Of a DNA stretch of 64,000 nt, positions 7,151-28,031 are shown piece by piece. A model generated the notes under the pieces. It had not been told where the DNA came from and did not search any database. It saw nothing but the letters and a program-made list of their open reading frames with translations. A program made the position numbers and the translations under genes. Within the stretch, counting starts at the first letter, position 1. Every line of letters begins with the position of its first letter. This DNA comes from Acidimicrobiia bacterium (GTDB taxonomy: Bacteria; Actinomycetota; Acidimicrobiia; IMCC26256; JAOSJL01), in NCBI GenBank assembly GCA_041394025.1, contig JAWKJA010000002.1:1454541-1518540 (forward strand), read 5' to 3'.

Positions 7151-7158
7151 GCCCCCGG

Positions 7159-9432: not shown

Positions 9433-9512
9433 GGGGCTCCGGGATCTCGATGCACCCGCGGCGCGGGAGCCTGACGTGAAACGAGGCCCCAGAGTATGCG
9501 TCGGGTGGTGGC

Positions 9513-10349: not shown

Positions 10350-10422
10350 CGGGGTGGGCGCCCGGGCTCACCGGCTAAATCCGACTTGAGAGGTCGGGAA
10401 TTGGCCGCTACCGTCGGCGCCG

Positions 10423-12397: not shown

Positions 12398-13696
12398 CGC
12401 TACTTGCCCGACCCTGGGCACCGAACATCGACAAACGCGCCGACGGCGGTGACACCCAGATCCGAAATCGCTGCTGCTCGCGAGGCTCCTGCCGCACCCA
12501 AGGGCCCACCCACAGCTCCTCCAAAAAACGGGCAGCGCTGCCGCGCGTGCTACCCGCTGCCGCTTGCATGGCTTCTCGTCGAGTGCTTCAGAGGTCACGT
12601 TCAGGGCACTCCCCCCAGCTACAAGCGCTAGCCCGGCAGGCGGATTGGCGAACGTGACACCTGTGCCCAGCAAAACTCCACCAGTATCGACGGCCTTTGT
12701 GATCCCGACCCTATTTTCGCCGACCCAGTCGACGGCGTCGTCGAGGCAGTTCCCGAGGTCCCGCCACCCACATCCTCTGAGACCCATCGGGTCGACCAGA
12801 ACGCCGGGGCGGTTTCGGACGTAGGCGTATGACGACACCGACGGGCTGTCCGCAGAAGGTTGCAGTGGGTCGGTGGCGAGGAACCGGCCTGTCGATGGGT
12901 CGTACTGGCGGGCCCGAAGGTTGTAGAGGCCGGTCTCTTCATCAAGGTATTCGCCCGTGAAGCGCATCGGATTCGCCGGTGCTGACGGCTCGAGTTGTTC
13001 CGAACGACGCGCTGCACCGAATGGCTCATAGTCGTAGGAACATCGTGGCGTGCCGTCGGCGGAGGTGACGGCCGCAATGTTGCCGAGGTCGTTGCGGTGG
13101 AAGAACGACTCCCCGCCGGCTGCGCGCATCGAGATCGTGCTTTCGCCGAACACGTAGTCGCGCAACGGCACTCCGCCACCGTCGGACTCGCCAACCAGCT
13201 GTGGTACCGGGGCGTTCCGATCCCACAACGAGTAGGTCGTTCCGGTTTCGGTCGTGGCCGCGAGCCGGTTCCCGTCGGCGTCGTAGCTGTAGGCCACGTC
13301 GGTCGTGTGGGAACCCCCAACGAGTGAGGCGGACCCGGTGACGCCCGTGACGGTCTCCCCGATCTTGGTGACCTGGAGATCCCCATCGGTGATCGTTCCG
13401 TAGGCCTCGTAGTCTACGGCGCCTGACAGGGACAGGCTGACCTCGTCGTTGCCGGCACCGTTGTCGGTGACTGACCAGTCGAGGTTGACGAGTCCGAAGA
13501 AGCTGTAGGTGCTCGTCGCCCCATTCGCGCCGTCGGGTGTGACCTGTCCGAACCAGATCGGCACGGTGACGTCGACGCCAGCCTGTTGGTCGGTGACCCG
13601 AACGCTGCCGAAGTAGACCGGGAACAACCACAACGAGCGCACGTTGAACTCCACGTCGACCACTGAGCCCGTCGCCGGTTTCGACGCGCCCGTCAT
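12152..13696 (-). CDS. RHS repeat-associated core domain protein fragment with C-terminal polymorphic-toxin-like tail
   Basis: Contains YD-type repeats (VAYSYDADGNRLAAT, CSYDYEPFG). The RHS core end reads PMRFTGEYLDEETGLYNLRARQYDPSTGRFLATDP...VLVDPMGL, with DPxGL at 12779-12793. The 208 codons after it look heterogeneous. Only about 300 aa precede the core, so this is probably an orphan or truncated module. Confidence 0.75.
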   Translation of the reverse strand: MTGASKPATGSVVDVEFNVRSLWLFPVYFGSVRVTDQQAGVDVTVPIWFGQVTPDGANGATSTYSFFGLVNLDWSVTDNGAGNDEVSLSLSGAVDYEAYGTITDGDLQVTKIGETVTGVTGSASLVGGSHTTDVAYSYDADGNRLAATTETGTTYSLWDRNAPVPQLVGESDGGGVPLRDYVFGESTISMRAAGGESFFHRNDLGNIAAVTSADGTPRCSYDYEPFGAARRSEQLEPSAPANPMRFTGEYLDEETGLYNLRARQYDPSTGRFLATDPLQPSADSPSVSSYAYVRNRPGVLVDPMGLRGCGWRDLGNCLDDAVDWVGENRVGITKAVDTGGVLLGTGVTFANPPAGLALVAGGSALNVTSEALDEKPCKRQRVARAAALPVFWRSCGWALGCGRSLASSSDFGSGCHRRRRVCRCSVPRVGQVAVVKRERYDEKEYRWASAHPRLAGSIVGAFGFVYSMLQFDFNYPLVCVGFGIGAGLFTWWLVRPGGVGHRWRRRYEERRRRD

Positions 13697-13756
13697 TCGG
13701 TTGGCCAGATCATAGGTATAGGCCGTAGCGCCGGCGGCCGCAGCGCGCGACCAGAC

Positions 13757-13999
13757 CTAACGCCTGCGCCGCCGGTCGCCGAGCAGCAGGGCGGCGATAC
13801 CTGTACCGCACCAAACCGCCACGGCCACCGCAATCTTCCACCGGGCATCTTCTGACGGCCTGGCTTGGCCGAGCACCCAAGCCACCACCAGTGCACCAAG
13901 AGCTCCAGTCAAGAACAAGAAGACGGTACGTACCTTCCTCTCGAGCACGGGGCAATCGAGAGAATGGAAGAAACCCGGACCGCAGGTCTTGCAGCCCAT
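13757..13999 (-). CDS. small 2-TM protein with N-terminal CxxC...C motif (immunity-like)
   Basis: ATG at 13997-13999: MGCKTCGPGFFHSLDCPVLERK, then two TM helices and a tail GDRRRRR. Same architecture as the ORF at 12152-12397. Lower-GC codons. Lies directly upstream of the RHS fragment. Confidence 0.4.
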   Translation of the reverse strand: MGCKTCGPGFFHSLDCPVLERKVRTVFLFLTGALGALVVAWVLGQARPSEDARWKIAVAVAVWCGTGIAALLLGDRRRRR

Positions 14000-14063
14000 G
14001 ACTACTTGCCGCAACTCGGTTCTGGAGGTCCCCCGCTCTGACGGACAGGTTGGGTGTGGGTGA

Positions 14064-14937
14064 TCATGGGGCGTTGGTGGTTTCGTAGTCGAGGGGGCTG
14101 TGTCCGGCGTTGTAGCTGTGCCGGCGGCGGGGGTTGTACCAGGTTACGATCCATTCAGAAGATCGCGTGGGCGAGCTGGTCGCGGGTGTCCCAGTGGTGC
14201 TGGTCCAACAGCTCGCGTTGCAGGCTCGAGAAGAAGACCTCGGCGACGGAGTTGTCATACGCGTCGCCGATGGATCCCATCGATCCGAGCAGGCCGGCGT
14301 TGCGGAGCCGGTTGCCGAACAGCCATGACGTGTAGATCGACCCGTGATCCGAGTGTGCAACGGTTTGGCCTGCTGGAGGTCGCCGCCGCCAGGTAGCCAT
14401 CTGGAGTGCATCCGCGGCGAGCTCTGTGCGGATGTGATCCGCGATGGACCAGCCAACGACCCGGCGGGACCAGGCGTCGACCACAGCGGCGAGGTAGACG
14501 GTGCCTTCATCGGTGCGGTGCTCGGTGACGTCCATCACCCACAGGCGGTCGGGACCTTCGGGGTCGAAGCGTCGCTGCACGAGGTCGGGGTTCGGGTCCG
14601 TGCCGTCGCGGCGGGTGCAACCGTTCTTGCCTCGCCGGGACGGGTAGTGGATCCCCACCGCGCCGCAGTCACGCATCCAGCGTTCCACCTGGGTCTTGGA
14701 GCACCGCCGGCGCATCCCCAAGCGGAGCTCCTGAAGAACCCGAGGTGACCCATACGAGTGCCGAGACATCGTCCAAATGTCGAACACCGTGTTGGCCATC
14801 CAGGCGTCGTCGAGTTCGGCGTCAGTGACCGGTTCGGATCGACGCTGGAAAAAGCCCGCTCTCGACACCCCCATCACACGGCAGCACACCGCGACGGGCA
14901 GATCCGAGCAACGCTCGGCGATGAAGGTGTAGATCAT
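14064..14937 (-). pseudogene. IS3 family transposase OrfB (rve/DDE integrase core) with a 3'-terminal frameshift
   Basis: DDE core blocks LWVMDVTE and HSDHGSIYTS. This frame stops at 14155 after ...QLAHAIF. The conserved tail EWIVTWYNPRRRHSYNAGHSPLDYETTNAP continues in another frame down to 14064, which implies one extra nucleotide near 14155-14160. Confidence 0.8.
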
Positions 14938-15224
14938 TTTGGGAGGACGTTCTCCTGGGCGAAGTACGCCGCCGCAGGCTTGAGGATCTCGTTCTCCATC
15001 TTCGCCACGCGCAACTCACGGCGCAGCTTCACCAGCTCCTCGCGCTCAGCAGTGCTGAGACCACCAGAGCGCCGTCCCTCGTCGAGGTCAGCTTGGTGCA
15101 TCCAGTTCCGCAAGCAGCTGTCGGAGATCCCAAGATCGGTTGCGATCTCCGCCACGGGCTTCTCGCGCAACCGGGCCAACTCCACGGCTCGCTGACGAAA
15201 CTCCGGTGGGTGGGGTGCAGGCAT
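14934..15224 (-). CDS. IS3 family transposase OrfA (HTH)
   Basis: MPAPHPPEFRQRAVELARLREKPVAEIATDLGISDSCLRNWMHQ plus a leucine-zipper-like tail. Ends in CCAAAATGA, overlapping the orfB start. Confidence 0.85.
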   Translation of the reverse strand: MPAPHPPEFRQRAVELARLREKPVAEIATDLGISDSCLRNWMHQADLDEGRRSGGLSTAEREELVKLRRELRVAKMENEILKPAAAYFAQENVLPK

Positions 15225-15356
15225 CTGGACTCCTTCCCGAGACGACCCACAGTCGCCTCAGCATCGGTGTCCGTCAACCCGGGGGACCTCCACCTTCCTG
15301 ACCGGGGTTCGAGGTGACAGATCAGTGGTTCACCCTGGGTTTGATGGAGACTCGGT

Positions 15357-15482
15357 TCATTGGGTTCCAACCGTGTTGTGGTCGGTCTGTTGACCAGCGT
15401 AGAACGCTGCTTCGAGTTCTGCTGGTGGCATGTCGTGGCAGTGGCCGTGGAGACGCTGGTGGTTGATGGGATGAAGGAGCGG
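15357..15482 (-). pseudogene. remnant of a second rve-type transposase C-terminus
   Basis: Minus-strand translation ...PLLHPINHQRLHGHCHDMPPAELEAAFYAGQQTDHNTVGTQ* resembles the YNxxRxH...PAEFE tail of integrase-core transposases. No upstream catalytic domain is present. Confidence 0.35.
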
Positions 15483-15556
15483 GTCCTGCGCTCCTCGTGA
15501 GCCCGGCGTGCATGCTCGGGGGCTCACACCATGTTCACGAGGATGGGAGGGCCCTC

Positions 15557-16086
15557 ATGGCAGGGTACGTTCCGATTGATCTCCATCGCCGCCGTTCGGT
15601 GGTGATGCACATCGACTCCGCCGGTGAGATGCTGGGTTGGAAGCGGGTCGCCAACGAACCGGACGCGCTGGTGGCTGAGGTGCTCTAGCACGGCGAGTCT
15701 CCCGAGGTGGCGATTGAAGCCACCTACGGGTGGTACTGGGCGGTCGACGCGCTCTCGGCAGCCGGGTGCGAGGTGAAGCTGGTCAACGTTGCTGCGGTGC
15801 GCGGGTTCGAGAATCGCCGGGTGAAAAATGACGTGCGGGACTGCGAGCTGTTGGGCCAGTTGATGCGCACGAACACGCTGCCCGAGGCGTGGATGGCCCG
15901 GAGCGAGGTACGCGAGCAGCGGGAGCTGGTCCGCTATCGGGCCAAGCTGGTGGCTGTGCGTACCGGGTCCAAAGCCCAGGTCCACTCGGCGTTCGCCAAG
16001 CTGGGCATCCAGGCTTGCTGGTCGGACATGTTCGGTCCCTCGGGCCGCCAAGAACAGGAACGTGAGCCGTGCCTCGAACGTGAAGG
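15557..16086 (+). pseudogene. IS110 family transposase, N-terminal DEDD domain only (in-frame TAG at 15686-15688; 3' truncated at the repeat)
   Basis: MAGYVPIDLHRRRSVVMHIDSAG...AEVL*HGESPEVAIEATYGWYWAVDALSAAGCEVKLVNVAAVRGFENRRVKNDVRDCELLGQLMRT...LVRYRAKLVAVRT matches the IS110 N-domain pattern. The C-terminal domain is absent. The ORF runs directly into the 105-bp permease repeat. Confidence 0.7.
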
Positions 16087-16191
16087 CGCCACGGCGCTGC
16101 TCGCCACGATGGTCGTGATCCTCGTGATCGGGATCGCCGTCGACAGCCTCGGGTTCGGGACGCTCGAGCGACGGATCCGCCGCCGCTACGG
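16087..16191. repeat. 105-bp direct repeat, right copy (attR-like)
   Basis: Identical to 11992-12096. Followed by ggtctcgccaccccgtag (GLATP*), which is synonymous with but differs from the tail after the left copy. Confidence 0.85.
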
Positions 16192-16225
16192 TCTCGCCAC
16201 CCCGTAGCGCGACGAAACCGCGCCG

Positions 16226-16693
16226 TCAGACTTCCTCGACGACGACCGACTCCATGACGTCGCCGACCTCGATGGCCTGGGCGACGTCGAGACCCTCGGT
16301 GGTGTAGCCGAAGAGGTTGTAGTCCTTCGACAGCTTGCTCGTGCAGTCGTCGATGCAGATGAAGAACTGCGAGCCGTTGGTGTTCGGCCCGGCGTTGGCC
16401 ATGGCCACCGCACCCAGTGTGTACTCACCGGTGACGGGCTCGTCCTCGAACTGGTAGCCGGGGCCGCCCGTGCCGTCGCCGTCGGGGCATCCGCCTTGCA
16501 CGACGAACTCGGGCACGACTCGGTGGAACGTGAGCTTGTCGTAGTAGCCGTCGCGGGCGAGGCCGACGAAGTTGGCGACCGTGCGGGGTGCCAGCGTGGG
16601 GTCGAGATCCATCACGATGTCGCCCTTGCTCGTGGTGACGGTCACGCGGTAGGTGGCGTCCTCGTCGATGGGATGGTTCGTCTGCGGTTCCAC
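16226..16693 (-). CDS. peptidyl-prolyl cis-trans isomerase, cyclophilin type
   Basis: FHRVVPEFVVQGGCP, GAVAMANAGPNTNGSQFFI. Confidence 0.9.
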   Translation of the reverse strand: MEPQTNHPIDEDATYRVTVTTSKGDIVMDLDPTLAPRTVANFVGLARDGYYDKLTFHRVVPEFVVQGGCPDGDGTGGPGYQFEDEPVTGEYTLGAVAMANAGPNTNGSQFFICIDDCTSKLSKDYNLFGYTTEGLDVAQAIEVGDVMESVVVEEV

Positions 16694-16768: not shown

Positions 16769-17542
16769 TCAGCCTGCAGGAACCGCGGCCCGCGCCTCCT
16801 CGGCGACCTGGCGTACCTGGTCGGCCAGGGGGCCGTCGGGATCGAGCTCGAGGTACCGGTCGAACTCGACGACCGCTCCGGCAGGGTCGTCCATGCCCCG
16901 CAGGAGGATCAATCCCCGGAAGAAGTGGGCGTCGGCGAAGTCGGGATCGAGTGCGACCGCAGCGTCGACGCGTTCCAGGGCCTCGTCGGGGAGGTCGGCC
17001 AGGAACACGATCCACCCGCCGTAGGCGCGCGCTTCGACGTTCGTGGGGTCGAGGGCCACGACCTCGTCGTAGGCCATGAGTGCGGCGGCAGGGTCCGTGG
17101 GCGCCAGGAAGCGCGCCAGCTCGAGATGCGCCTCGGGGTCGTCGGGGTTGCGCTCCACCGCCTCCTCGAGGGCCTCACGCGTCGCTGCGGCGCTGTCTTC
17201 GGCGGTCTGCTCGTTGCCGGTGGCGGTCCCCCCCTCCGTACGATCCCCCAGCGCGTTGGCGAGCAGGATGCCCGCCACGACCGCGAACGCCAGGATGCCG
17301 CCGGCCACGGCGAGCGTTCGCGCGGTGCTGCGCGGACGCTCCGTCGTACCCGGGTCCTCACCGGAACGTTCCGCCGCATCGATGGCCCGCAGTACCGCTG
17401 CAGCACGCGCGGTGTAGTCGTCGCGGAGCCGTTCGTATGTGTCCTCGTCGATGTCGTCGTCGGCACGCTCGCGCTCCAGGTCGTCGAGGGACCGAAGGAG
17501 GAAGTCGCGCTCGTCGTAGAGGTCACCGAGCGCCGGCTGCAC
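16769..17542 (-). CDS. ccmI: c-type cytochrome biogenesis protein CcmI/CycH-like (TM plus TPR)
   Basis: GTG at 17540-17542 chosen, overlapping the ccmH end by 20 nt. Acidic helical N-terminus, one TM (LAVAGGILAFAVVAGILLA), TPR-like repeats, and last position in the ccm operon. The longer track ORF runs antisense-like into ccmH. Confidence 0.6.
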   Translation of the reverse strand: MQPALGDLYDERDFLLRSLDDLERERADDDIDEDTYERLRDDYTARAAAVLRAIDAAERSGEDPGTTERPRSTARTLAVAGGILAFAVVAGILLANALGDRTEGGTATGNEQTAEDSAAATREALEEAVERNPDDPEAHLELARFLAPTDPAAALMAYDEVVALDPTNVEARAYGGWIVFLADLPDEALERVDAAVALDPDFADAHFFRGLILLRGMDDPAGAVVEFDRYLELDPDGPLADQVRQVAEEARAAVPAG

Positions 17543-18008
17543 CGGGGTCCTCCTCCTGTCGGCGCTCGCGCTCGACGAGCTCACGGTCCTCTGCCGTCGG
17601 CGTGTAGCGGGGCTCACGGCGCCACCGCGTGAGCGCGACCACGAGGACTCCCCCACCGACCAGGAGCCCGGCGACCGGCAGGAGCCAGACGAGCAGGCCC
17701 ACACCGCTCCCCGGCGGTTCGAGCAGGATCCACTCGCCGTACCTGTCGACGTACGCCTGGCGGATCTCCTCGTCGGTCTGCCCCTCGTCGATACGGCGTC
17801 GGACGTCGTCGCTGATGGCCCGCGCCGTCGACGACGGGCTGTCGGCCACCGAGAGCCCCTGGCAGGTCGGGCACCGCAACTCCTCCGTGAGGGCCTCGTG
17901 GCGCGCCTCCGGAGACGTGTCTCCCCCGCCCGAATCGCTCCACGCGACGGCGACCGTCGCCACGACGAGAGCGGCGAGCGCCGCCCAGGGCAGCCAGCGG
18001 CGCATCAC
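17523..18008 (-). CDS. ccmH: cytochrome c-type biogenesis protein CcmH
   Basis: LRCPTCQG motif, signal peptide, and a C-terminal TM. Confidence 0.85.
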   Translation of the reverse strand: MMRRWLPWAALAALVVATVAVAWSDSGGGDTSPEARHEALTEELRCPTCQGLSVADSPSSTARAISDDVRRRIDEGQTDEEIRQAYVDRYGEWILLEPPGSGVGLLVWLLPVAGLLVGGGVLVVALTRWRREPRYTPTAEDRELVERERRQEEDPGAAGAR

Positions 18009-18607
18009 CCGATTCCCCGCGCGCGATCGAGCATCGCCTCGAGGTCGTCGACGTCGACCTCGCCGAGCTGCTTGGCGACGACGACGCCGGCGGGATCGAT
18101 GGCGTAGGTCTCGGGTTGCCCCGTGGTGGCGAAGTCGAGCGCGGCCCGAGCACCCGGATCAGACGTGATCGTCCAGTCGACGCCCTTCTCCTCGACCCAT
18201 GCGAGTGCGGCCTCGTCGGTGTCGTCCCGCACGATGCCGACCATCGCGAAGTCCGCGTCCTCGGCGTGCCGGTCGTAGAACTCGGCCAGCGCGTCGTGCT
18301 CCGTACGACACGGGAGGCACCAGGAGTTCCAGAAGTTCACGATCACGGCCTTGCCCGCCAGCGACTCGTTGCTCACGGTCTCCGCGGGCGGCTCTGCGTC
18401 CACCACGGCAGGAGAGAGCACGGGCAGGTCGAACTCCGGCGCGGGCCCACCGAGATCCGGCCCACCCTCGAACGTGGGGTCGGTGTTCACCTGCGTCGCC
18501 AGCACGACGGCCAGGACCACGACGACGACTCCCGCCGCCGACGCCGTCCACAGCACGACCCGCGAGCGGCGTGGCCGACCCTCCGGCGACGGCGCACCGG
18601 TCGTCAC
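18005..18607 (-). CDS. ccmG: thiol:disulfide interchange protein CcmG/DsbE
   Basis: GTG at 18605-18607 forms a GTGA overlap with the ccmF stop. One TM, then a thioredoxin fold with FWNSWCLPCRTEH. Confidence 0.85.
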   Translation of the reverse strand: MTTGAPSPEGRPRRSRVVLWTASAAGVVVVVLAVVLATQVNTDPTFEGGPDLGGPAPEFDLPVLSPAVVDAEPPAETVSNESLAGKAVIVNFWNSWCLPCRTEHDALAEFYDRHAEDADFAMVGIVRDDTDEAALAWVEEKGVDWTITSDPGARAALDFATTGQPETYAIDPAGVVVAKQLGEVDVDDLEAMLDRARGIG

Positions 18608-20673
18608 GCCGGTACCTCCGGTGTCTCGGGGAGTGCGTCCGTTGCCACGTCGGAGCGGCGGACGCGGTGCAGCGCACTCTTCGCCGACGGGCCGACGGCG
18701 ACCAGGGTCCCGAGGAACATCACGCCGCCGCCGATCCAGAGCCACAGGACCATCGGGTTCACGGCCACGCCGAGCGTGACGCGCCCCGACTCGTTGGGCG
18801 ACGAGATCAACGTGAGGTACACGTCGCGCGTGACGCCGGTGCGCACCGAGGGGGTGCCGATACCCTGGGTGCTGTTCGGGAACGTGGAGATCGCAGGCGC
18901 GTAGACACCGAGGTCGTCGCCCCCCCTTTCCACCCGCACACGTGCCGAGCTCGTGGCCTTCTGTGCGGTCGTCGACGTCTCGCTCCCGAGATAGGTGACC
19001 GTGTAGCCCGCCACCGTGGCCGACTCACCCTCGGCGAGCCGGACCTCGCGGCTGGTCGACCAGTGGGCGCCCACCGAGATGGCGAGGGCGACGAGCACCA
19101 CCCCGACGTGCACGACGAGGCCGCCGTACCTGCGCGGGTTGCCGGTGACCGTGCGGAGAAGTGCCGTCGGGACCGCCTCGTCGTGGCCACGGCGACGCGA
19201 CCGCACCGCCACGACGAACTGCTGCACGATCCCGGCGAGGGCGAAGGCGGCGAGGCCGAAGACGAGGATCTGGGCGACGCCGCGGGTGCCGAACAGGACG
19301 GCGACGGCCATGGTGGCCGCCCCGGTCCAGGCCGGCACCCGGAACCGCCGTTGGAGCACGTCACCCGAGGCCGCACGCCACGGCAGAGCGGGGGCGGCGG
19401 CCATGAGGAAGAGGAGCGCCAGCCCGATGGGAAGAGTCATCCGGTCGAAGTACGGCTCACCGACCGACAACTGCCGCTCCTGGAAGGCCTCGACGAGCAG
19501 CGGGAACACGGTGCCGAGCAGCACGACGAAGGCGAACGCCGCGAACAGGAGGTTGTTGGCCAGAAACGCCGACTCGCGCGACACGATGCTGTCGATCCGA
19601 CCCGGCGAGCGCAACAGGTCGCCGCGCCACGCGATGAGCCCGATCCCCACGACGGCGGTGATGCCGAGGAACGCGAGCAGCATCGGCCCGATGCCCGACT
19701 CCGTGAAGGAGTGGACGCTGTTCACCACACCCGAACGCGTGAGGAACGTGCCGAGGATCGTGAGACAGAACGTGGCGATGAGAAGCGACAGGTTCCAGAC
19801 CCGGAGCATCCCCCGGCGCTCCTGCACCATCACGGAGTGGATGTAGGCCGTGCCGGTGAGCCACGGAAGGAGTGACGCGTTCTCGACGGGGTCCCACGCC
19901 CAGTAGCCGCCCCAGCCGAGGACCTCGTAGCTCCACCATCCGCCGAGGACGATCCCCGCTGTGAGAAAACCCCAGGCCAGCACAGCAGCGCGGCGGGTCT
20001 CGATGAGCCAGCCCTCGCCGAGCCGGCCGGTGACGAGCGCCGCCACGGCGAACATGAACGGCACGGTGAAGCCGACGTAGCCCAGGTACAGCATCGGCGG
20101 ATGGACCGCCATGAGAGGGTGGTTCTGGAGCAGCGGGTTCGGTCCCGGGCCGTCGGGGGGAACGACACCCGACACGAGCCGAAACGGGTTGGCGGGACCC
20201 AGGACGAGAAGGAAGAAGAAGAGCGCCACGACGAGACCCGTGATCGTCGCCCACGCGACGAGCGGGTCGGTGGCACGGTCGCGGAACCGCCACGCCGTGT
20301 GGGCCAGGTAGCCGGCGAGGATCAGGACCCACAGGAGGATCGAGCCCTCGAGCGACGCCCACAGGGACGCCACGGTGTAGAAGACCGGCGTGGCGCGCGA
20401 GCCGTTGGCGGCCACGTACTCCAGGGAGAAGTCGTGGCTCAGCAGTGCCCATTCCATGACGAGCGCTGCCACGACCGCGGCCACGAGCACCGCGAACACG
20501 AAGCGGCGCCCCAGCAGCAGGAGGCGGTCGTCGCCGCGGTGCAAACCGACGCCGAGGGCCGTGATGCCGAGAGCACAGGCGGCGGCACCCCACACGAGGG
20601 CGCCGTATCCGATCGCCGCCTTCACCGGCGCAGGCTGGGGGCGCCGGGGCCCCGACGACTCATGGGGCGTCAC
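18604..20673 (-). CDS. ccmF: cytochrome c heme lyase subunit CcmF
   Basis: 689-aa polytopic protein with WWD domain WGGYWAWDPVENASLLPW. The start may be the internal GTG at VKAAIGY. Confidence 0.9.
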   Translation of the reverse strand: MTPHESSGPRRPQPAPVKAAIGYGALVWGAAACALGITALGVGLHRGDDRLLLLGRRFVFAVLVAAVVAALVMEWALLSHDFSLEYVAANGSRATPVFYTVASLWASLEGSILLWVLILAGYLAHTAWRFRDRATDPLVAWATITGLVVALFFFLLVLGPANPFRLVSGVVPPDGPGPNPLLQNHPLMAVHPPMLYLGYVGFTVPFMFAVAALVTGRLGEGWLIETRRAAVLAWGFLTAGIVLGGWWSYEVLGWGGYWAWDPVENASLLPWLTGTAYIHSVMVQERRGMLRVWNLSLLIATFCLTILGTFLTRSGVVNSVHSFTESGIGPMLLAFLGITAVVGIGLIAWRGDLLRSPGRIDSIVSRESAFLANNLLFAAFAFVVLLGTVFPLLVEAFQERQLSVGEPYFDRMTLPIGLALLFLMAAAPALPWRAASGDVLQRRFRVPAWTGAATMAVAVLFGTRGVAQILVFGLAAFALAGIVQQFVVAVRSRRRGHDEAVPTALLRTVTGNPRRYGGLVVHVGVVLVALAISVGAHWSTSREVRLAEGESATVAGYTVTYLGSETSTTAQKATSSARVRVERGGDDLGVYAPAISTFPNSTQGIGTPSVRTGVTRDVYLTLISSPNESGRVTLGVAVNPMVLWLWIGGGVMFLGTLVAVGPSAKSALHRVRRSDVATDALPETPEVPA

Positions 20674-21124
20674 CCTCCGACGTCGCCGCGTCCGACGACG
20701 GCTCCTCGTCGGTGTTCACCTCGGGCGGTGAGTACTCGTTGCCGTGGTTGATGAGGATCCGGTCGGAGCGAAACGTCACGAAGTCGTCGGACCACTCCCC
20801 TTCGGTCACCACGGGGGCGCCCTCGGCGAACAGGTCGGGCGGGTCGCCACGGTGGACGACCTCGACGGTCGCGGTGCCGTCGGTGACCTCGAAGGTGACG
20901 CCGTCGTCGGTCTCGGCAACGGTCCCGGGCACGACCTCACCGGCGAGGCGCACCCGTCCGCTGTCCTGTTCCGCCACGGCCTCCGACACGGTCCGGAAGT
21001 AGACGATGTTGCCGCGCAGGCCTCCGAACACGAGGAAGGCCACCGCGCCCACACAGGCGAGTGCGGCTGCGACGTAGAGCCACCGTCGACCCCGGACGGC
21101 GCGCGGCGAGGCCTGCGACGTCAC
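20660..21124 (-). CDS. ccmE: cytochrome c maturation heme chaperone CcmE
   Basis: GTG at 21122-21124, 6 nt after GGGAGG. TM, then an OB fold. Heme-binding HxxxY is present as NHGNEY. The longer track ORF is Arg-rich upstream. Confidence 0.85.
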   Translation of the reverse strand: MTSQASPRAVRGRRWLYVAAALACVGAVAFLVFGGLRGNIVYFRTVSEAVAEQDSGRVRLAGEVVPGTVAETDDGVTFEVTDGTATVEVVHRGDPPDLFAEGAPVVTEGEWSDDFVTFRSDRILINHGNEYSPPEVNTDEEPSSDAATSEGDAP

Positions 21125-21276
21125 GGGCGCCCCTCCCGCGCCCGGACACGGGTGAGGTCCTCGTCGGTCATCGAGGCGCGGACCCTCCGGAAGCGCCACG
21201 CCATCCACGCGACATACGCGACGAGGACGACCACCGTGACGACGTACCCCGCGAGCACGTACCCCGCATCGCTCAC
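21121..21276 (-). CDS. ccmD: heme exporter protein CcmD (51 aa; below the ORF-track cutoff)
   Basis: VSDAGYVLAGYVVTVVVLVAYVAWMAWRFRRVRASMTDEDLTRVRAREGRP*. Single TM. GGGAGA lies 6 nt upstream. GTGA overlaps with both the ccmC stop and the ccmE start. Confidence 0.6.
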   Translation of the reverse strand: MSDAGYVLAGYVVTVVVLVAYVAWMAWRFRRVRASMTDEDLTRVRAREGRP

Positions 21277-22058
21277 CGGTCGTCTCCCACACCCGCGACC
21301 GCCGGGCCGGCCGACGCGGCGCTGTTCGCCGCACCGGCATCGGCGCTCGCGATCCGATCCGCTATCGCGGCCTCGAGCTCACGCTCGTCGTGGCCCTCCT
21401 CGAGGCGGGCGAGTTGCACCCGACGCGCCATGAGGTAGCCGTAGGCGAGCGTGAAGGCCACGACGGCGAATGCCAGCGTCCAAGCCATCGTCCCCTCGAT
21501 CTGCGCGTCGAGCTCGGGGTTGAACACGGTCGCCTCCTGGTGGAGGGTGCGCCACCAGTTCACCGAGAAGTGCACGATCGGCACGTCGACGAAGGCGATG
21601 AGCGCCGCGATCGCGGCGCGTCGGGCCCGCACGTCGGGATCGGCCGGCACGCGCCGCAGCGCCAGGTAGCCGAGATACAGGAAGAACAGCACCGCGGTGG
21701 TGACGAGCCGGGCGTCCCACACCCACCACGTTCCCCACACGGGACGGCCCCAGAGCGAGCCGAGCACGAGCGTGAGCCCCGTGAACACCACGCCGATCTC
21801 GGCCGACGCACCGGCGAGAAGATCCCAGTCGAGGCGGCGCGTGCGCGGCCAGAGGTAGAGAAGTGACGCCACGGCGGTGACGAAGAACGCCAGGTACGCC
21901 AGCCACGCCGCCGGCACATGGACGTACATGAGCCGTTGCGCGTCGCCCTGCACGGCGTCGGCGGGCGCGACCCCCAGCGCGAGAACGCCGAGGACGAACA
22001 GGGCCAGCAGCGTGACGAGACCCAGGATGTTCACCGCGGGCCGGGCCAGCGAGATCAT
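21273..22058 (-). CDS. ccmC: heme exporter protein CcmC
   Basis: ATG at 22056-22058 (MISLARPAV) forms an ATGA overlap with the ccmB stop. WWD motif WGTWWVWDARL. Acidic/Ala-rich C-terminal extension of about 50 aa. Confidence 0.9.
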   Translation of the reverse strand: MISLARPAVNILGLVTLLALFVLGVLALGVAPADAVQGDAQRLMYVHVPAAWLAYLAFFVTAVASLLYLWPRTRRLDWDLLAGASAEIGVVFTGLTLVLGSLWGRPVWGTWWVWDARLVTTAVLFFLYLGYLALRRVPADPDVRARRAAIAALIAFVDVPIVHFSVNWWRTLHQEATVFNPELDAQIEGTMAWTLAFAVVAFTLAYGYLMARRVQLARLEEGHDERELEAAIADRIASADAGAANSAASAGPAVAGVGDDR

Positions 22059-22729
22059 GCGTCCTCCAACAGGGAGCCGAAGGCGAGAACCCCCAGCCCC
22101 ACGTACAACACGGCGAACAGCCCGAGGAGCTGGACCCACGGCCATGCCTCGGACGGCACGCCGTCGAGCCCCGCCTCGAACGCCCGCGTGGCCCCCAGCA
22201 TGACCGGCGCAACCACGGGAAGCAGCAACAGGGGCACCAGCGTCTCGCGCGTGCGCAGGCCGGCGGCGAGCACCCCGAAGAGCGTACCGGTGGCCGCGAC
22301 GCCGACGGTCGCGGCCAGGGCCGTGAGGGCGAGGATCCCGAGGCTTCGCAGCGCCATGTCGTAGAAGACGACGACACCGACACCGAGCACGACCTCCAGA
22401 GCCAGGAGCTCGATGCTCACGGCGAGCGCCTTGCCGAGGAACACGGACGCACCGTCGATGCCGGAGAGGCGAAGTCCGTCGAGAGCGCCGTGCTCGGTCT
22501 CCAGTGCGAAAGAGCGTGAGACCGCGAGCACCGCGGCCAGCAGTACGGCGACCCAGAACAGCCCGGGGGCCACGACGGGGAGCAGGCCGCGGTCGGGGTC
22601 GAGGGCGAAGGCGAACAGCAGCAGCACGACGGCGCCGAACGGCAGGACCTGGTTGAGCGTGACCCGTGAGCGGGCCTCGATGCGCAGGTCCTTGGCGGCG
22701 ACGAGCCACACCTCACGGACGAGGCTCAT
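22055..22729 (-). CDS. ccmB: heme exporter permease CcmB
   Basis: 224-aa six-TM protein in the ccmB position, with an ATGA overlap with ccmA. Confidence 0.85.
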   Translation of the reverse strand: MSLVREVWLVAAKDLRIEARSRVTLNQVLPFGAVVLLLFAFALDPDRGLLPVVAPGLFWVAVLLAAVLAVSRSFALETEHGALDGLRLSGIDGASVFLGKALAVSIELLALEVVLGVGVVVFYDMALRSLGILALTALAATVGVAATGTLFGVLAAGLRTRETLVPLLLLPVVAPVMLGATRAFEAGLDGVPSEAWPWVQLLGLFAVLYVGLGVLAFGSLLEDA

Positions 22730-23391
22730 GGGCGTGGTCCCGGTGCGTCGCCCGTCGGTGCGGCCGCGACGGGGTGCGCGCGGCCGCCGACGACGCGGAC
22801 CTCGCGGTCCGCCAGCGACCGCACGCGCTCGGTCTCGTGCGAGGCGATGATGACGGTCGTGCCGTGATCGGGCGCCGCGCGCACGATCCCGTCGAGAACG
22901 GCCCGCCCATCAGGGTCGAGCCCGGCGTGGGGCTCGTCGAGGAGCAGCAGCTCGGGGTGGCCGGTGAGCGCCACGGCCAGTGCGAGGCGGCGGCGCTGGC
23001 CGGCCGACAGCTTCTGGTGGGTGACGGCCGCCTGCGCGTCGAGTCCGACCCGCGAGAGATGGTCGTCCGCCGACGAGGCGTCGTTTCCCGCTGCCCGCGC
23101 GGCGAAACGCAGGTTCTCCCGCACGGTCAGGTCGTCGTAGCACAGCGTGTCGTGCGCCATGAGCCCGAGGAGGTGTCGGTGGCTTCGCCGGTCACGGGCA
23201 AGGTCGACACCCAGGACCTCGGCCTCACCCGACCGCAACCGGACGAGGCCGGCCAGCAACCGCAGGATCGTGGTCTTGCCCGCTCCGTTGGGGCCGCTGA
23301 GCAGCACGATCTCGCCTCGGCTCACGTCGAGGTCGGCGCCCGCCAGAGCGGGGAAGCGACCGAGGAGACAGACAGCGGCGCGGAGGCGCAC
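22726..23391 (-). CDS. ccmA: heme exporter ATPase CcmA
   Basis: GTG at 23389-23391 chosen; TTG at 23403 is possible. Walker A GPNGAGKTT, signature LSAGQRRRL, Walker B LLLDEP. The longer track ORF upstream is not credible. Confidence 0.85.
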   Translation of the reverse strand: MRLRAAVCLLGRFPALAGADLDVSRGEIVLLSGPNGAGKTTILRLLAGLVRLRSGEAEVLGVDLARDRRSHRHLLGLMAHDTLCYDDLTVRENLRFAARAAGNDASSADDHLSRVGLDAQAAVTHQKLSAGQRRRLALAVALTGHPELLLLDEPHAGLDPDGRAVLDGIVRAAPDHGTTVIIASHETERVRSLADREVRVVGGRAHPVAAAPTGDAPGPRP

Positions 23392-23566
23392 AGCGAGCGG
23401 CAACGGACCCTCAAGGGCCGGGAAACGGTGCCGAAAGTGTAAGGAGCGCCCCGTGAACCCGTCGAACCGGCATGTGGACGCCGCCGCCGGACCGTGGGAG
23501 GTCGCACGACCCGGTGGTGAGCCGGACTGCCCCGAATGTCCCGGTAGGATTCGCCCCGTGCCCGAG

Positions 23567-24766
23567 ATGGACGACATGCCCGACGAGACCACCGCGTCCG
23601 AGACCACTGCGTCGTCCTCGGCGCCCGTCGCAACGGCGTCGACGGCCACGGCCACCCCGACCACGACGACGGAGCGCCCGGCAGCAGACGGCGACACCGG
23701 CCCCTCCCGGCAGCCGGGGCGCACCGGCGACGGCGGCTCCGGCGGCGACGAGCCTCCCGGGGAGACACCCGACCCCGAATCCGGCTCCTCCCGGCCCCGC
23801 GACACCGGCATCCGGGCGGTGGTCGGCTTCATCGGCCGTGGCCTCATCACGCTCGGAATCCTCGTTCTCCTGTTCGTCGCCTACCAGCTCTGGGGAACAG
23901 CAATCTACGAGGCGCGCGCCCAGAACCAGCTCGAGACCGACTTCGAGCAGCGTCTCCAGGAGGTCGAATCGAACGCCACGGAGAACCAGGCGCCCGACGA
24001 CCTGGGCGGGGCCGAGGGTGAGAACGGATCGTTCCTCGACGAGCCCGTTCCCGCCTCGTCGTTCACCGAGGGTGAGGCCGCCTTCAAGATCGAGATCCCC
24101 GATGCCGGTGTCGACAGGATCGTCGTGCAGGGCGTGTCGATCCCCGACCTGCGCAAGGGCCCGGGCCACTACGAGTTCACCCCGATGCCCGGTGAGATCG
24201 GTAACGCCGCCATCGCCGGTCACCGCACCACCTACGGCCAGCCCTTCCACAACCTCGACAAGCTCGAGCCGGGCGACGAGGTCACCACCACGACCCTCAG
24301 CGGCACCTTCGTCTACGACGTCGTGAAGACCGAGGTCGTCCAACCCACCGACGTCGACGTGCTCGAGCCCCCCGGCAAGAACACCTACGTCGGCGACGAA
24401 ATCCCCGAGGGCGGGGCGATGCTCACGCTCACCACCTGCAACCCGAAGTACTCGGCGGCGGAGCGCCTCGTGGTGTTCGCGGCGCTCAACCCCTCGAAGA
24501 GCCCCGAGGCGCAACCGCCGAGCGTCGACGTCACCCTGGGGGCAGAGCGCACCACGATCGACTCGGCGGGCCTGTCGGGTGAGTCCGGGAGCCGGATGCC
24601 CACCTACGTCTTCGGCCTGGTCGTGGCCGCCGTGGGGGCGCTGTGGTACTTCGCCTTCCGGCGCTGGCGGCACTGGTACACGTGGTTCGCCGGCGCCATT
24701 CCGTTCCTGGCCGTTCTCTTCTTCTTCTACACCTACCTCGAGCGCGTCCTCCCCGGAAACTACTGA
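23567..24766 (+). CDS. class E-like sortase (membrane-anchored transpeptidase)
   Basis: ATG at 23567. Low-complexity N-terminus, one TM, catalytic His (IAGHRTTYG), TLxTC motif MLTLTTCNP, and C-terminal TM segments. Confidence 0.85.
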   Translation: MDDMPDETTASETTASSSAPVATASTATATPTTTTERPAADGDTGPSRQPGRTGDGGSGGDEPPGETPDPESGSSRPRDTGIRAVVGFIGRGLITLGILVLLFVAYQLWGTAIYEARAQNQLETDFEQRLQEVESNATENQAPDDLGGAEGENGSFLDEPVPASSFTEGEAAFKIEIPDAGVDRIVVQGVSIPDLRKGPGHYEFTPMPGEIGNAAIAGHRTTYGQPFHNLDKLEPGDEVTTTTLSGTFVYDVVKTEVVQPTDVDVLEPPGKNTYVGDEIPEGGAMLTLTTCNPKYSAAERLVVFAALNPSKSPEAQPPSVDVTLGAERTTIDSAGLSGESGSRMPTYVFGLVVAAVGALWYFAFRRWRHWYTWFAGAIPFLAVLFFFYTYLERVLPGNY

Positions 24767-24876: not shown

Positions 24877-24919
24877 CCGAGGCGAGGCATGGGCAAGGCG
24901 TCAGCCCCGCATCGGGGCT
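24876..24919. repeat. 44-bp direct repeat, copy 2 (hairpin CGTCAGCCCCG-cat-CGGGGCTGACG at 24899-24923)
   Basis: cccgaggcgaggcatgggcaaggcgtcagccccgcatcggggct. It overlaps the last 6 codons and the stop of the epimerase gene. Confidence 0.8.
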
Positions 24920-25983
24920 GACGCGAACTCCTCCATCCCCTCCGCCAGGTCGATCCGGGCGCGGAAGCCGAGGTACGTCGCCGCACGCTCGATGGACGCG
25001 AACACGTGGCGGACGTCGCCGGGGCGGTAGCCGCCCACCACCTCGGGGGCGGGTGAGCCCGGGAAGCAGCGGTGGAGTGCCTGCGCCAGGTCGAGCACGG
25101 TTCGCGGCGTCCCGCTGGCGATGTTGAAGACAGCGTGGTCGAGCACGGCCGCCTCCGACCCGGCACCGTCCTCGTGGGTACCGGCAAGAGCGAGCACGTT
25201 GGCGTGAGCCACGTCGCGCACGTGCACGAAGTCGCGCATCTGCCCACCGTCCTCGAACACGCGGGGTGCGGTCCCGTCTTCGTAGGCACTGCGGAAGATC
25301 GACGCCACACCCGCATACGGCGTGTCGTGGGGCATCCTCGGCCCGTAGACGTTGTGGTAGCGCAGGACCGTGAGCTCCGTGTCGTGCTCGCGCGCGAAGG
25401 CGGCGCACAGGTGCTCCTGGTGGACTTTGGTGGCCGCGTACACGTTGCGGGGATCCACCGGTGCCTCCTCGGGGACGGCCTCGGGCACCAGCTCCGAGCC
25501 GCACTCGGGGCACAGCGGCTCCCAGAGACCGGCGTCGAGCCGTTCCCGCGGTCGGGGCCCGGGGCGTACCAGCCCGTGTTCGCCGCACCGGTAGCGGCCC
25601 TCGCCGTAGGCGACCATGCTCCCCGCCAGGACAAGCCGCTCCGGAACATGGGCCGCGTGCATGGCGGCGAGCAGGGAGGCGGTGCCGGCGTCGTTGTGCG
25701 CGACGTAGTGCTCGACGTCGCCGAAGTCGACGCCGAGCCCGACCATCGCCGCCTGGTGGCACACCGCGTCGACACCACCCAGTGCGTCGGCCACCGCGTC
25801 GCGGTCGCGTACGTCGGCGAACCGGTGGTCGACGTCGGGTCGCAGGTCGGCGGGAGGACCGTTGTGGGCGCCCGGATGGAGCAGGTCGAGCACACGCACG
25901 TCGTGGCCCCGCTCACACAGGGCGTCGACGACGTGCGAGCCGATGAACCCGGCTCCGCCGGTGACGAGGACCGATGGCTTCAC
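24901..25983 (-). CDS. NAD-dependent epimerase/dehydratase (SDR) with Cys/His-rich insertion
   Basis: GTG at 25981-25983 forms a GTGA overlap with the kinase stop. VLVTGGAGFIGSH, catalytic YAATK. The insert RYRCGEHG...LCPECGSE sits before the YxxxK. Confidence 0.85.
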   Translation of the reverse strand: MKPSVLVTGGAGFIGSHVVDALCERGHDVRVLDLLHPGAHNGPPADLRPDVDHRFADVRDRDAVADALGGVDAVCHQAAMVGLGVDFGDVEHYVAHNDAGTASLLAAMHAAHVPERLVLAGSMVAYGEGRYRCGEHGLVRPGPRPRERLDAGLWEPLCPECGSELVPEAVPEEAPVDPRNVYAATKVHQEHLCAAFAREHDTELTVLRYHNVYGPRMPHDTPYAGVASIFRSAYEDGTAPRVFEDGGQMRDFVHVRDVAHANVLALAGTHEDGAGSEAAVLDHAVFNIASGTPRTVLDLAQALHRCFPGSPAPEVVGGYRPGDVRHVFASIERAATYLGFRARIDLAEGMEEFASAPMRG

Positions 25984-27323
25984 GCCGTGGCGACCGGGCG
26001 GTGCACATCGCCGCCTCCCGGTGGACCGGGGTCGAGAGGCAGGACAACCGTGAAGCGTGCGCCGCCGTTGTCGTTGCGCACCTCGATGTGTCCGCCGTGG
26101 GCCTCGACGAGGCCGCGGGCGATGGTGAGCCCGAGGCCCGCGCCACCGTCGGCCGGGCGCGCCGGATCGGCGCGGTACGCGGTGTCGAAGACCCTGTCGA
26201 GATCGGCCTCGGGGATCCCGCCACCGTCGTCGCAGACCGACACCCACGCGGCGGGGACGTCGCCCCCGCCGTCGACCGACGCGGCGGAGACGCCGGCACC
26301 GTTGCCCGCCTCGACGACGACGGTGCCGTCGACGGGCGTGTGACGAATGGCGTTCTCCAAGAGGTTGCGCAGCACACGCAGCACATCGACCGGCGAGCAC
26401 CGCAGCTCCGGCGGGGTCCCGACCATCCGACCCTCCACCTGGACACCCTTCGCCGCCGCCACGCCCTCCACACCGGCGAGAGCGTCCGAGACGAGATCGG
26501 CCAGGGGCACCTGCTCCCGCTCCGGGCGGACGACACCGGCCTCCACCCTGCTCAGCTCGAAGAGGTCGTCGACCAGCTCGGCGAGCCGGTCGGCCTGCGT
26601 CCGGACGGTCGTGTGGTACTCGGCGACGACTCCCGGGTCGGTGACCACGCCGTCCTCGAGGGCCTCCGCCAGGGCGCGGATCCCGGCCAGTGGTGTCCGG
26701 AGGTCGTGGCTCACCCACGCCACGAGCTCGCGTCGCGACTGCTCCATCGCCTGCTCACGCTCCCGCGACTCCCGGAGCCGCTGCGACATGTCGTCGAGCT
26801 CACGTGCGAGGCGTGCCCACTCCCCCGGTCCGACCGACCGTGCCGGGGCGTCCCCGGCCTCCACCGCGACGCCGTCGCCGATTCGGCGCGTGCGCTCGGC
26901 CAGTGCGTGGCTGGCGCGGGACACACGGTTGCCGAGGAGCACGGCGGCCGCCACACCGACGGTTCCGGCGGCGACGAGCACGACGTCGAGTGCGGCCGCG
27001 TCGGCGTTGGAGATGAACATCCGCCGCGCGGCCGACCAGGCTCCGAGCCCTGCGGCACCCACCGCCGTCAACGTGACGATCGTGACCTGTACGCCGATCG
27101 GGCGCCGGCGGGCCAGGCCCAGCGCGAGAGTCCCGAGGGCTCCGGCGACCAGGGCCGCTCCGGCGGCGATCACGAGCAGCTCGAAGAAGTGCGAACGCGA
27201 CATCGACCGCGCCGAGGCGACGAGCGCTGTCAGGAACGCGCCGACGAGGAGCGTTCCCCCGACGAGAAGCAGCGTCCGCCGGGTGCCCGGGACGGTCTCG
27301 TGTGTGGTCGTCGTCACGCTCAT
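25980..27323 (-). CDS. sensor histidine kinase
   Basis: ATG at 27321-27323 after GAGGGAAG. Several TMs and a HAMP-like linker. H-box WVSHDLRTPL, N-box LRNLLENAIRHTP, G-boxes DDGGGIP and GAGLGLTIA. Confidence 0.85.
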   Translation of the reverse strand: MSVTTTTHETVPGTRRTLLLVGGTLLVGAFLTALVASARSMSRSHFFELLVIAAGAALVAGALGTLALGLARRRPIGVQVTIVTLTAVGAAGLGAWSAARRMFISNADAAALDVVLVAAGTVGVAAAVLLGNRVSRASHALAERTRRIGDGVAVEAGDAPARSVGPGEWARLARELDDMSQRLRESREREQAMEQSRRELVAWVSHDLRTPLAGIRALAEALEDGVVTDPGVVAEYHTTVRTQADRLAELVDDLFELSRVEAGVVRPEREQVPLADLVSDALAGVEGVAAAKGVQVEGRMVGTPPELRCSPVDVLRVLRNLLENAIRHTPVDGTVVVEAGNGAGVSAASVDGGGDVPAAWVSVCDDGGGIPEADLDRVFDTAYRADPARPADGGAGLGLTIARGLVEAHGGHIEVRNDNGGARFTVVLPLDPGPPGGGDVHRPVATA

Positions 27324-27339
27324 GGTTCTTCCCTCGTCC

Positions 27340-28029
27340 TCACGCGTCGAACCGGTAGCCGACACCCCACACGGTCGAGATCCTGGTCGGGTTCGACGGC
27401 TCGTCCTCGATCTTCTCGCGCAACCGGCGGATGTGCACGGTCACCGTCGACGCGTCGCCGTAGCTGTAGCCCCACACCCTCTCCAGGAGCTCGTCGCGTC
27501 GGAAGGCAACCCCCGGATGGGTGGTGAGGAAGGCCAGGAGGTCGAACTCCCGTGCGGTGAGTGGGACCTCCGCACCGCCGCGCTCCACCGTGCGGGCACC
27601 CGTGTCGATCACCAGGTCGCCGAACGTGACGGGTTCCACCGGATCGGGAGTGGGCGCGTGGGTGCGGCGCAGGACGGCCCTGATGCGGGCCATGAGCTCC
27701 CGGGGTGAGAACGGCTTCGTCACGTAGTCGTCGGCGCCGTACTCGAGCCCGCACAGACGGTCCTCCTCCTCGCCCTTGGCCGTGAGTATGACGACAGGAA
27801 CCGGGCCGGCGTCACGGAGGCGGCGACACACCTCCAGACCATCCATGTCGGGGAGCATGAGGTCGAGCACGGCGAGGTCGGGGCGACGGGCGTCGGCCTC
27901 CCTCACGGCGGCCTCACCGCTGTCGAGGGCGCACACGTCGTATCCATCGCGTTCGAGATACCGCACGACGACCTCCGAGACCGTCGGGTCGTCCTCGACG
28001 ACGAGCACGCGGCGGGTCGGCGTGGTCAT
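27340..28029 (-). CDS. OmpR-family response regulator
   Basis: ATG at 28027-28029. RVLVVEDD, LDLMLPDMDG, winged-helix tail STVWGVGYRF. Confidence 0.9.
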   Translation of the reverse strand: MTTPTRRVLVVEDDPTVSEVVVRYLERDGYDVCALDSGEAAVREADARRPDLAVLDLMLPDMDGLEVCRRLRDAGPVPVVILTAKGEEEDRLCGLEYGADDYVTKPFSPRELMARIRAVLRRTHAPTPDPVEPVTFGDLVIDTGARTVERGGAEVPLTAREFDLLAFLTTHPGVAFRRDELLERVWGYSYGDASTVTVHIRRLREKIEDEPSNPTRISTVWGVGYRFDA

Positions 28030-28031
28030 GG

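Follow-up and report, generated by a model that had tools for sequence, protein, structure and literature searches.

Is a complete System I cytochrome c maturation (Ccm) operon in an actinobacterial genome an exception, an acquisition from elsewhere, or the ordinary equipment of its lineage? The question is raised by a 64-kb stretch of DNA (hereafter, the window) from a metagenome-assembled genome (MAG) of an Acidimicrobiia bacterium, in which an earlier reading made from the letters alone (the sequence-only reading) had noticed such an operon. Bacillus, Corynebacterium and Mycobacterium are the Gram-positive examples of System II (PMC9145763, PMC10663686), and the canonical System I pathway has been described elsewhere (PMC3601427, PMC10457321, PMC10663686). 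Our analysis indicates that the region is very probably a canonical System I operon of an Acidimicrobiia bacterium, ccmABCDEFGH together with a CcmI-like gene for a tetratricopeptide repeat (TPR) protein, and that it has been inherited vertically within the class.

The list of open reading frames (ORFs) contains nine consecutive, co-directional frames on the minus strand between positions 16769 and 23403, which correspond to ccmA, B, C, D, E, F, G and H and a TPR gene in the position of ccmI. Lengths are given in amino acids (aa) and overlaps in nucleotides (nt):

22726..23403, minus strand: ccmA, ATP-binding subunit of the ABC complex for heme handling; 225 aa, TTG start.
22055..22729, minus strand: ccmB, membrane component of that complex; 224 aa, overlapping ccmA at ATGA.
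21273..22058, minus strand: ccmC, WWD-domain protein predicted to load heme onto CcmE; 261 aa, overlapping ccmB at ATGA.
21121..21276, minus strand: ccmD-like gene for a small protein that would cross the membrane once; 51 aa, overlapping both neighbors at GTGA.
20660..21124, minus strand: ccmE, membrane-anchored heme chaperone; 154 aa, N-terminal membrane anchor.
18604..20625, minus strand: ccmF, heme lyase subunit; the deposited protein has 673 aa, and the alternative GTG start at 20673 would give 689 aa.
18005..18607, minus strand: ccmG, thioredoxin-like reductase with a membrane anchor; 200 aa, overlapping ccmF at GTGA.
17523..18008, minus strand: ccmH, thiol-oxidoreductase that partners CcmF; 161 aa, possibly starting at ATG 18005.
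16769..17542, minus strand: CcmI-like TPR protein; 257 aa, 20-nt overlap with ccmH, preceded by AGGAGGAGGA.

The sequence-only reading had placed nine Ccm functions on this strand, and all nine ORFs were found at that location together with every motif it had quoted (GPNGAGKT, LSAGQ, LLLLDE, WGTWWVWDAR, HGNEY, WGGYWAWDPVEN, WCLPC and LRCPTC). Its description of the genes as tightly coupled also agreed with the sequence. Four-nucleotide overlaps join the genes at six junctions, ATGA at A/B and B/C and GTGA at C/D, D/E and F/G as it had described, and GTGA also at G/H, a junction that its list had omitted and where the overlap would shrink to 1 nt (TGATG) if ccmH starts at ATG 18005. The 20-nt overlap at H/I was likewise seen, with a strong Shine-Dalgarno sequence, AGGAGGAGGA, ahead of the TPR gene. 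Two of its positions depend on, or shift with, the choice of start codon. The 14-nt overlap given for E/F is present if CcmF starts at GTG 20673, but becomes a 34-nt gap with the start at 20625 used by GenBank and Logan; and the operon end, set at 23391, moves 12 nt further out to the called CcmA start, the TTG at 23403.

Gene boundaries are those of the ORFs checked against the deposited proteins; a gene call based on guanine-plus-cytosine (GC) content at third codon positions (GC3) missed several ccm genes and was used for composition only. Eight of the nine deposited proteins (MEZ5170435 and MEZ5170437-443) are matched exactly by these boundaries. The 161-aa CcmH has no identical entry in the protein collection, so the deposited CcmH start is probably a different one. 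By hydropathy, CcmD, CcmE, CcmG and the TPR protein each have one predicted membrane anchor, and CcmH, also predicted to be anchored, has two hydrophobic segments. A promoter scan detected no promoter-like site and a terminator scan detected just chance-level, terminator-like sites inside genes, both scans being uninformative for an actinobacterium with 70% GC, and an Rfam search of the window gave no match.

Pfam and NCBIfam matches appear to identify eight of the nine proteins by family. CcmA scored above the cutoff of its NCBIfam model (TIGR01189, 136.4 bits against 131.6), carries Walker A (GPNGAGKT), signature (LSAGQ) and Walker B (LLLLDE) motifs and shares 33% identity with CcmA of Escherichia coli. 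It is identical to MEZ5170443.1, annotated as heme ABC exporter ATP-binding protein CcmA. CcmB was well above the Pfam cutoff (PF03379, 114.7 bits against 24.9) and below that of the NCBIfam ccmB equivalog (67 against 156); it has about six hydrophobic segments and is identical to MEZ5170442.1, heme exporter protein CcmB. The two proteins supply the heme-handling ABC module that characterizes System I. CcmC matched PF01578 (128.8 bits) and fell just below the cutoff of TIGR01191 (183.9 bits against 186), and it aligned with chain C of the E. coli CcmC structure 7F02 (E=5.6e-39). Both the WWD motif (WGTWWVWDAR) and the two external histidines of a System I CcmC are present, His47 and His173 aligning with E. 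coli His60 and His184. GenBank names this protein cytochrome c biogenesis protein CcsA (MEZ5170441.1), as it does the counterpart from a sister MAG (MCZ7530288.1); CcsA is a System II name, and the protein so labeled here is CcmC.

CcmE matched PF03100 (76 bits) and, below cutoff, NF009727 (99.8 bits); its HGNEY motif provides the heme-binding histidine of an H-x-x-x-Y signature, which separates System I from System I*, with His127 and Tyr131 aligning with E. coli His130 and Tyr134. The protein is identical to MEZ5170439.1, cytochrome c maturation protein CcmE. CcmF matched PF16327 (193 bits) and PF01578 (118 bits), aligned with the crystal structure of Thermus thermophilus CcmF (6ZMQ, E=4.9e-129) and shares 34% identity with E. 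coli CcmF. It contains the motif WGGYWAWDPVEN of the WWD domain together with two external and two transmembrane histidines, its His175, 263, 305 and 506 aligning with E. coli His173, 261, 303 and 491, and it is identical to MEZ5170438.1, which GenBank assigns to the CcmF/NrfE family. CcmG, encoded between ccmF and ccmH and deposited as a redoxin domain-containing protein, matched Redoxin (69 bits) and AhpC-TSA (68.5 bits) and has an N-terminal membrane anchor in front of a thioredoxin fold with a CxxC pair (WCLPC; Cys97 and Cys100, aligned with E. coli Cys80 and Cys83). CcmH matched PF03918 (107.2 bits), shares 40% identity with the N-terminal domain of E. coli CcmH and carries the LRCxxC motif (LRCPTC; Cys46 and Cys49, aligned with E. 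coli Cys43 and Cys46). The ccmD-like product, a hypothetical protein in GenBank (R3A49_06805), has one hydrophobic helix followed by a basic tail, and ORFs of 37-56 aa with one helix and a start of the form M[ST]D[AV]G[YF]V lie between ccmC and ccmE in many related loci.

In total, twelve functional residues were checked against E. coli K-12 (four histidines of CcmF, two of CcmC, the histidine and tyrosine of CcmE and two cysteines each of CcmH and CcmG) and all were conserved. The functional role of these residues is well established in the E. coli system. The WWD/histidine architecture to which several of them belong has been reviewed (PMC10663686).

The protein encoded in the CcmI position has an acidic N-terminal segment, one transmembrane helix (residues ~77-95) and C-terminal TPR repeats, and is annotated in GenBank as a tetratricopeptide repeat protein (MEZ5170435.1). 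As expected of a ccmI, its gene adjoins ccmH and is coupled to it, and tblastn searches of the CcmF loci showed that in most of those from Acidimicrobiia, and in several from Limnocylindria, ccmH is directly followed by a homologue. From its coupling, architecture and conserved position we infer that the protein plays the role of CcmI.

The gene order and the style of overlapping genes are those of E. coli K-12 ccmABCDEFGH (b2201-b2194), and CcmA, B, C, E, F, G and the N-terminal half of CcmH are 27-40% identical to their E. coli counterparts, with the twelve residues shared. The two operons differ in that E. coli has a TPR (CcmI-like) domain fused to CcmH, whereas CcmH and the TPR protein are separate gene products in the window; the E. 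coli counterparts of the TPR protein and CcmD have no detectable similarity to the window proteins. The closest solved structure for CcmF, T. thermophilus 6ZMQ, aligns over residues 18-650, a span that takes in the WWD loop and the helices bearing the histidines, and is much closer to the window protein than is E. coli CcmF; it comes from another phylum, is a single protein outside any complex with CcmH or CcmI, and is silent on a TPR partner. CcmI of Rhodobacter capsulatus has two transmembrane helices that flank a cytoplasmic loop. The window resembles R. capsulatus in having an unfused CcmH followed by a membrane-anchored TPR protein, but that TPR protein has one predicted helix after its acidic N-terminal segment. 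Unfused CcmH and CcmI, as in R. capsulatus and most proteobacteria, are the commoner arrangement (PMC3601427).

System I* of archaea and Desulfovibrio contains homologues of CcmA, B, C, E and F (PMC3601427). Assignment to that variant was rejected because CcmE has the His127-x3-Tyr131 signature and CcmH is present, which places the operon in canonical System I. System II (ResB/ResC or CcsBA, CcdA and ResA) does the same job, and its CcsA/ResC protein shares the WWD domain PF01578 with CcmC and CcmF, but CcmE, CcmAB and CcmH have no counterpart there. No ResB/CcsB-family protein was found in the operon; the CcsB model TIGR03144 gave weak matches to CcmC and CcmF, 37-38 bits against a cutoff of 187.6, in the shared domain. 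The sequence-only reading had started from the textbook view that Gram-positive bacteria, Actinomycetota included, use System II. That generalization is a real one, but it is based on the class Actinomycetes and fails for Acidimicrobiia.

The steps of heme delivery proposed here, like the role of the TPR protein, are drawn by homology from the systems of E. coli, Rhodobacter and Thermus. CcmC, with CcmD, would present heme at its extracytoplasmic WWD/histidine site, and a covalent adduct would form on His127 of CcmE. ATP hydrolysis by CcmA2B2 would free holo-CcmE, which would bring the heme to the WWD site of CcmF, where the b-heme of CcmF, held by two transmembrane histidines, would reduce the incoming heme. 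CcmG and CcmH would hold the cysteines of the apocytochrome CxxCH motif reduced, and the TPR protein would probably keep the apocytochrome at the CcmF/H lyase during formation of the two thioether bonds. From taxonomy and a class E sortase encoded next to the operon, we infer that the host has no outer membrane; the extracytoplasmic components are all membrane-anchored, so the pathway would be workable without one.

The source genome had been called apparently actinobacterial, and this was borne out. The proteins are 100% identical to MEZ5170435-443, which NCBI lists under "MAG: Acidimicrobiia bacterium" and which lie on a deposited contig of 1,605,800 bp, and independent assemblies of two further read sets gave the same gene arrangement. 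The class of the source genome is Acidimicrobiia, and genes next to the operon, described below, also point to an actinobacterial origin.

How widespread System I is within the class was evaluated by scanning one genome per GTDB species with the CcmF of the window. At least 594 stretches encode a relative, and the counts that follow are from the best 80 loci. Forty-seven of these loci are from Actinomycetota, 46 of them within the Acidimicrobiia CcmF groups, and the named taxa among the 47 include Acidimicrobiaceae, Iamiaceae, Microthrixaceae, Candidatus Poriferisodalaceae and Candidatus Aldehydirespirator. Several of the loci lie on MAG chromosomes that have been closed, from Acidimicrobiales and Poriferisodalaceae and 2.1-3.9 Mb in size (OY730477, OZ242033, OZ242297, NZ_OZ244925 and OZ252012). 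When the nine window proteins were used as tblastn queries, ccmA, B, C, E, F, G and H were detected jointly in 32 of the 47 actinomycetotal loci, most of the others being broken off by contig ends. The order in the full loci was A-B-C-E-F-G-H in 29, usually with the TPR gene next, and F-H-I-G in three. A search seeded from an Iamia locus showed that the cultured Iamia sp. SCSIO 61187 (5.14-Mb contig) and Aquihabitans carry CcmF. The protein database holds thousands of CcmF relatives, and among the best 120, all 67-89% identical, every entry that names a taxon is from Acidimicrobiia or from Actinomycetota/Actinobacteria.

On this evidence System I is common in the class Acidimicrobiia. The sequence-only reading had presented the operon as an anomaly, with the proviso that System I might prove common in the class concerned, and the 47 of 80 loci, the shared order and flanks, the single CcmF clade and the Iamia isolate leave that framing without its basis.

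Two Acidimicrobiia loci, L008 (positions 8001-11956) and L067 (8001-11413), encode CcmF and CcmH with no ccmABCE in the 8 kb upstream, and in L008 a TPR gene also lies beside the pair. Such a layout could mean that the operon has been divided, or that these loci carry an additional, independent lyase pair.

The genes upstream of the operon are as follows:

23441-24766, plus strand: class E sortase, divergent from ccmA (NF033747, 186 bits against a cutoff of 160).
24901-25983: sugar epimerase/dehydratase gene, with the regulator/kinase pair upstream of it.
25980-28050, minus strand: MtrA-like response regulator (246.7 bits against a cutoff of 300) and MtrB/WalK-like histidine kinase.

Class E sortases and MtrA-like regulators with their kinases are typical of Actinomycetota, and their place next to the operon is in keeping with the origin of the contig. 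A sortase upstream of ccmA recurs in 21 Acidimicrobiia loci, with 31-50% protein identity, a pairing that may be part of a conserved backbone or may be linked to cell-wall-anchored cytochromes. The starts of the sortase gene and ccmA are just ~35-50 nt apart, which suggests leaderless transcripts or promoters inside coding regions. The block of regulator, kinase and epimerase genes is conserved in locus L003.

On the downstream side, the window contains:

16226-16693, minus strand: cyclophilin-type peptidyl-prolyl isomerase, 75 nt after the TPR gene.
15707-16207, plus strand: transposase fragment of the insertion sequence (IS) family IS110.
14155-14937, minus strand: IS3-family transposase.
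12152-13696, minus strand: ORF with an RHS-associated core domain.

The cyclophilin gene, which may be co-transcribed with the ccm genes, is kept at this position in the closest relatives (70-78% identity). The block from 12152 to 16207, comprising the RHS-core ORF and the IS3 and IS110 elements, has a GC content of ~0.65, below that of the window. In close relatives the cyclophilin gene runs directly into aconitase or an ABC-transporter pair, and because that neighborhood is contiguous there, the block looks like a mobile-element insertion beside the operon and not like the operon's vehicle.

Several lines of evidence bear on how the operon came to be in this genome. Its closest relatives have the operon followed by the same cyclophilin gene and then by aconitase. 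On the same contigs aconitase is 73-76% identical and CcmF 63-69% identical to the window proteins, and the divergence of CcmF appears proportionate to that of aconitase. A neighbor-joining tree of 81 CcmF sequences placed all Actinomycetota together and separated them from Gemmatimonadota, Limnocylindria (Chloroflexota) and Myxococcota, with bootstrap values of 99/100 for the actinomycetotal bipartition, 99 for the main Acidimicrobiia group and 100 for the window's own subgroup. Because the tree is distance-based and its sequences were picked for their resemblance to the query, it supports one origin among the sampled sequences and gives no date. The composition of the operon (GC 0.70-0.72) is that of the window (~0.70), and CcmF GC3 (0.91) is like that of neighboring genes. 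Conserved flanks, matching divergence, a single CcmF clade and a composition free of GC or GC3 anomaly together argue that the operon has been inherited vertically within Acidimicrobiia, with no recent transfer. The sequence-only reading had offered a choice between a lineage-specific exception and a fully ameliorated horizontal acquisition; the exception stands, as one that takes in the whole class, and a recent transfer does not. Any acquisition may instead have been ancient, at or before the base of the class.

A related operon is found outside the class. Tersicoccus phoenicis 1p05MA, a cultured member of the Micrococcaceae in the class Actinomycetes, carries ccmABC(D)EF-H-I-G (NZ_MRDE01000068.1; locus L081, positions 5322-12000). 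Its CcmF groups (100/100) with those of Microthrixaceae and other Acidimicrobiia (L067, L072 and L080), all with the F-H-I-G order, and the operon may represent a transfer of System I into Actinomycetes.

Three other explanations of the region were weighed against vertically inherited, canonical System I. Horizontal acquisition by this genome or its shallow lineage from a Gram-negative donor, with composition adapted since, would fit the transposases and RHS-core ORF 0.6-4.6 kb downstream of the operon (GC 0.65), as well as the sources of the next-closest CcmF proteins (Gemmatimonadota, Limnocylindria and Myxococcota, at 45-50% identity). We regard it as very improbable. The mobile block lies beyond the cyclophilin gene and was seemingly inserted between that gene and the ABC-transporter and aconitase genes that adjoin the operon in relatives, operon order and both flanks are kept across many Acidimicrobiia species, and CcmF tracks aconitase in its divergence, falls in the single actinomycetotal clade (99/100) and shows no anomaly in GC or GC3. 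Even less credible is an assembly or binning artefact, by which the contig, or this part of it, would be non-actinobacterial and System I would be at home in a Gram-negative genome. The source is a MAG, and the related loci are mostly from MAGs with generic labels; but the deposited contig spans 1.6 Mb and its arrangement recurs in the two independent assemblies, a class E sortase and an MtrA-like regulator adjoin the operon, the flanking aconitase is 73-76% identical to that on contigs labeled actinobacterial or Acidimicrobiia, and the genes are carried by the closed Acidimicrobiales and Poriferisodalaceae MAG chromosomes and by cultured Iamia.

Family models raised the third explanation, in which CcmF, CcmH and the TPR protein form an NrfE/NrfF/NrfG-type lyase for an unusual heme motif such as the CxxCK of nitrite reductase. 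The best NCBIfam match is formally nrfE for CcmF (TIGR03145, 417 bits) and nrfF for CcmH (TIGR03147, 60 bits). Both scores are far under their cutoffs (927 and 159), and the general CcmF/NrfE model, itself under its cutoff of 569, scored nearly as high for CcmF (409). The genes are embedded in, and translationally coupled to, a full ccmABCDE...G operon, no nrfA-like, CxxCH or CxxCK gene is present nearby in the 64-kb window, and most relatives carry the same single operon. Membership in NrfEFG was rejected on the sub-cutoff scores and the lack of linkage to nrfA in the window, and this explanation, too, has very little probability.

Some observations nevertheless weigh against reading the region as a canonical System I operon that is usual for its class. 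No genuine c-type cytochrome (CxxCH) gene is present in the 64-kb window, where the sole CxxCH motif occurs in an antisense ORF with non-coding codon statistics. The CcmF model scores, with NrfE formally ahead and both models under cutoff, belong here, as do those of CcmG, which was below the cutoff of the DsbE subfamily model (TIGR00385, 72.5 bits against 123), and of the ccmD-like ORF, which matched TIGR03141 weakly and below cutoff (E=1.7e-3, 18.4 bits against 25.95) and had no detectable similarity to E. coli CcmD. The TPR protein matched generic TPR models alone, with no match to a CcmI/CycH-specific family in Pfam or NCBIfam, did not align significantly with the TPR half of CcmH from E. 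coli, and gave generic TPR matches among solved structures, with no specific similarity to a solved relative of CcmI or NrfG. The 47 of 80 is a share of the best-scoring CcmF loci and not a fraction of Acidimicrobiia species, and in the literature searched no paper discussing Ccm genes in Acidimicrobiia was found.

Elsewhere in the window, ARAGORN called a 93-nt tRNA-Gly(acc) at 11731-11823 on the plus strand, inside an ABC permease ORF (11195-12112), which is probably a false positive, and a normal-looking tRNA-Ser(cga) at 42640-42725 on the minus strand. Two long ORFs with coding-like GC3 lacked family matches. The ORF at 538-2814 (plus strand, 758 aa, GC3 0.84) had no Pfam match, and that at 28032-29471 (minus strand, 479 aa, GC3 0.88) had no Pfam or NCBIfam match and has a 55%-identical counterpart in locus L003.

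The operon is a known system that is already annotated in the GenBank record of this genome, mostly under correct names (five of the nine proteins carry Ccm names), and it is the usual state of the class Acidimicrobiia, ordinary for its lineage. The rule that Gram-positive bacteria or Actinomycetota use System II rests on models from Actinomycetes and Bacillota and is not valid for Acidimicrobiia. The CcsA label on CcmC could lead keyword surveys to count Acidimicrobiia genomes as System II. Reconstructions of respiration in the abundant, uncultured Acidimicrobiia of soil, sea water and sponges should expect c-type cytochromes matured by Ccm.

A wider reading, which we put forward tentatively and with more doubt than conviction, is that Acidimicrobiia as a whole mature cytochrome c by System I and by no other pathway, the system having been gained or kept a single time at the base of the class. 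If so, the rule that Gram-positive bacteria use System II would fail for a whole class of Gram-positive actinobacteria, and a lineage-specific, single-helix TPR partner would replace the classical CcmI. The divergent class E sortase could then hint at cell-wall-anchored cytochrome substrates, and the T. phoenicis operon would mark a transfer from Acidimicrobiia into Actinomycetes.

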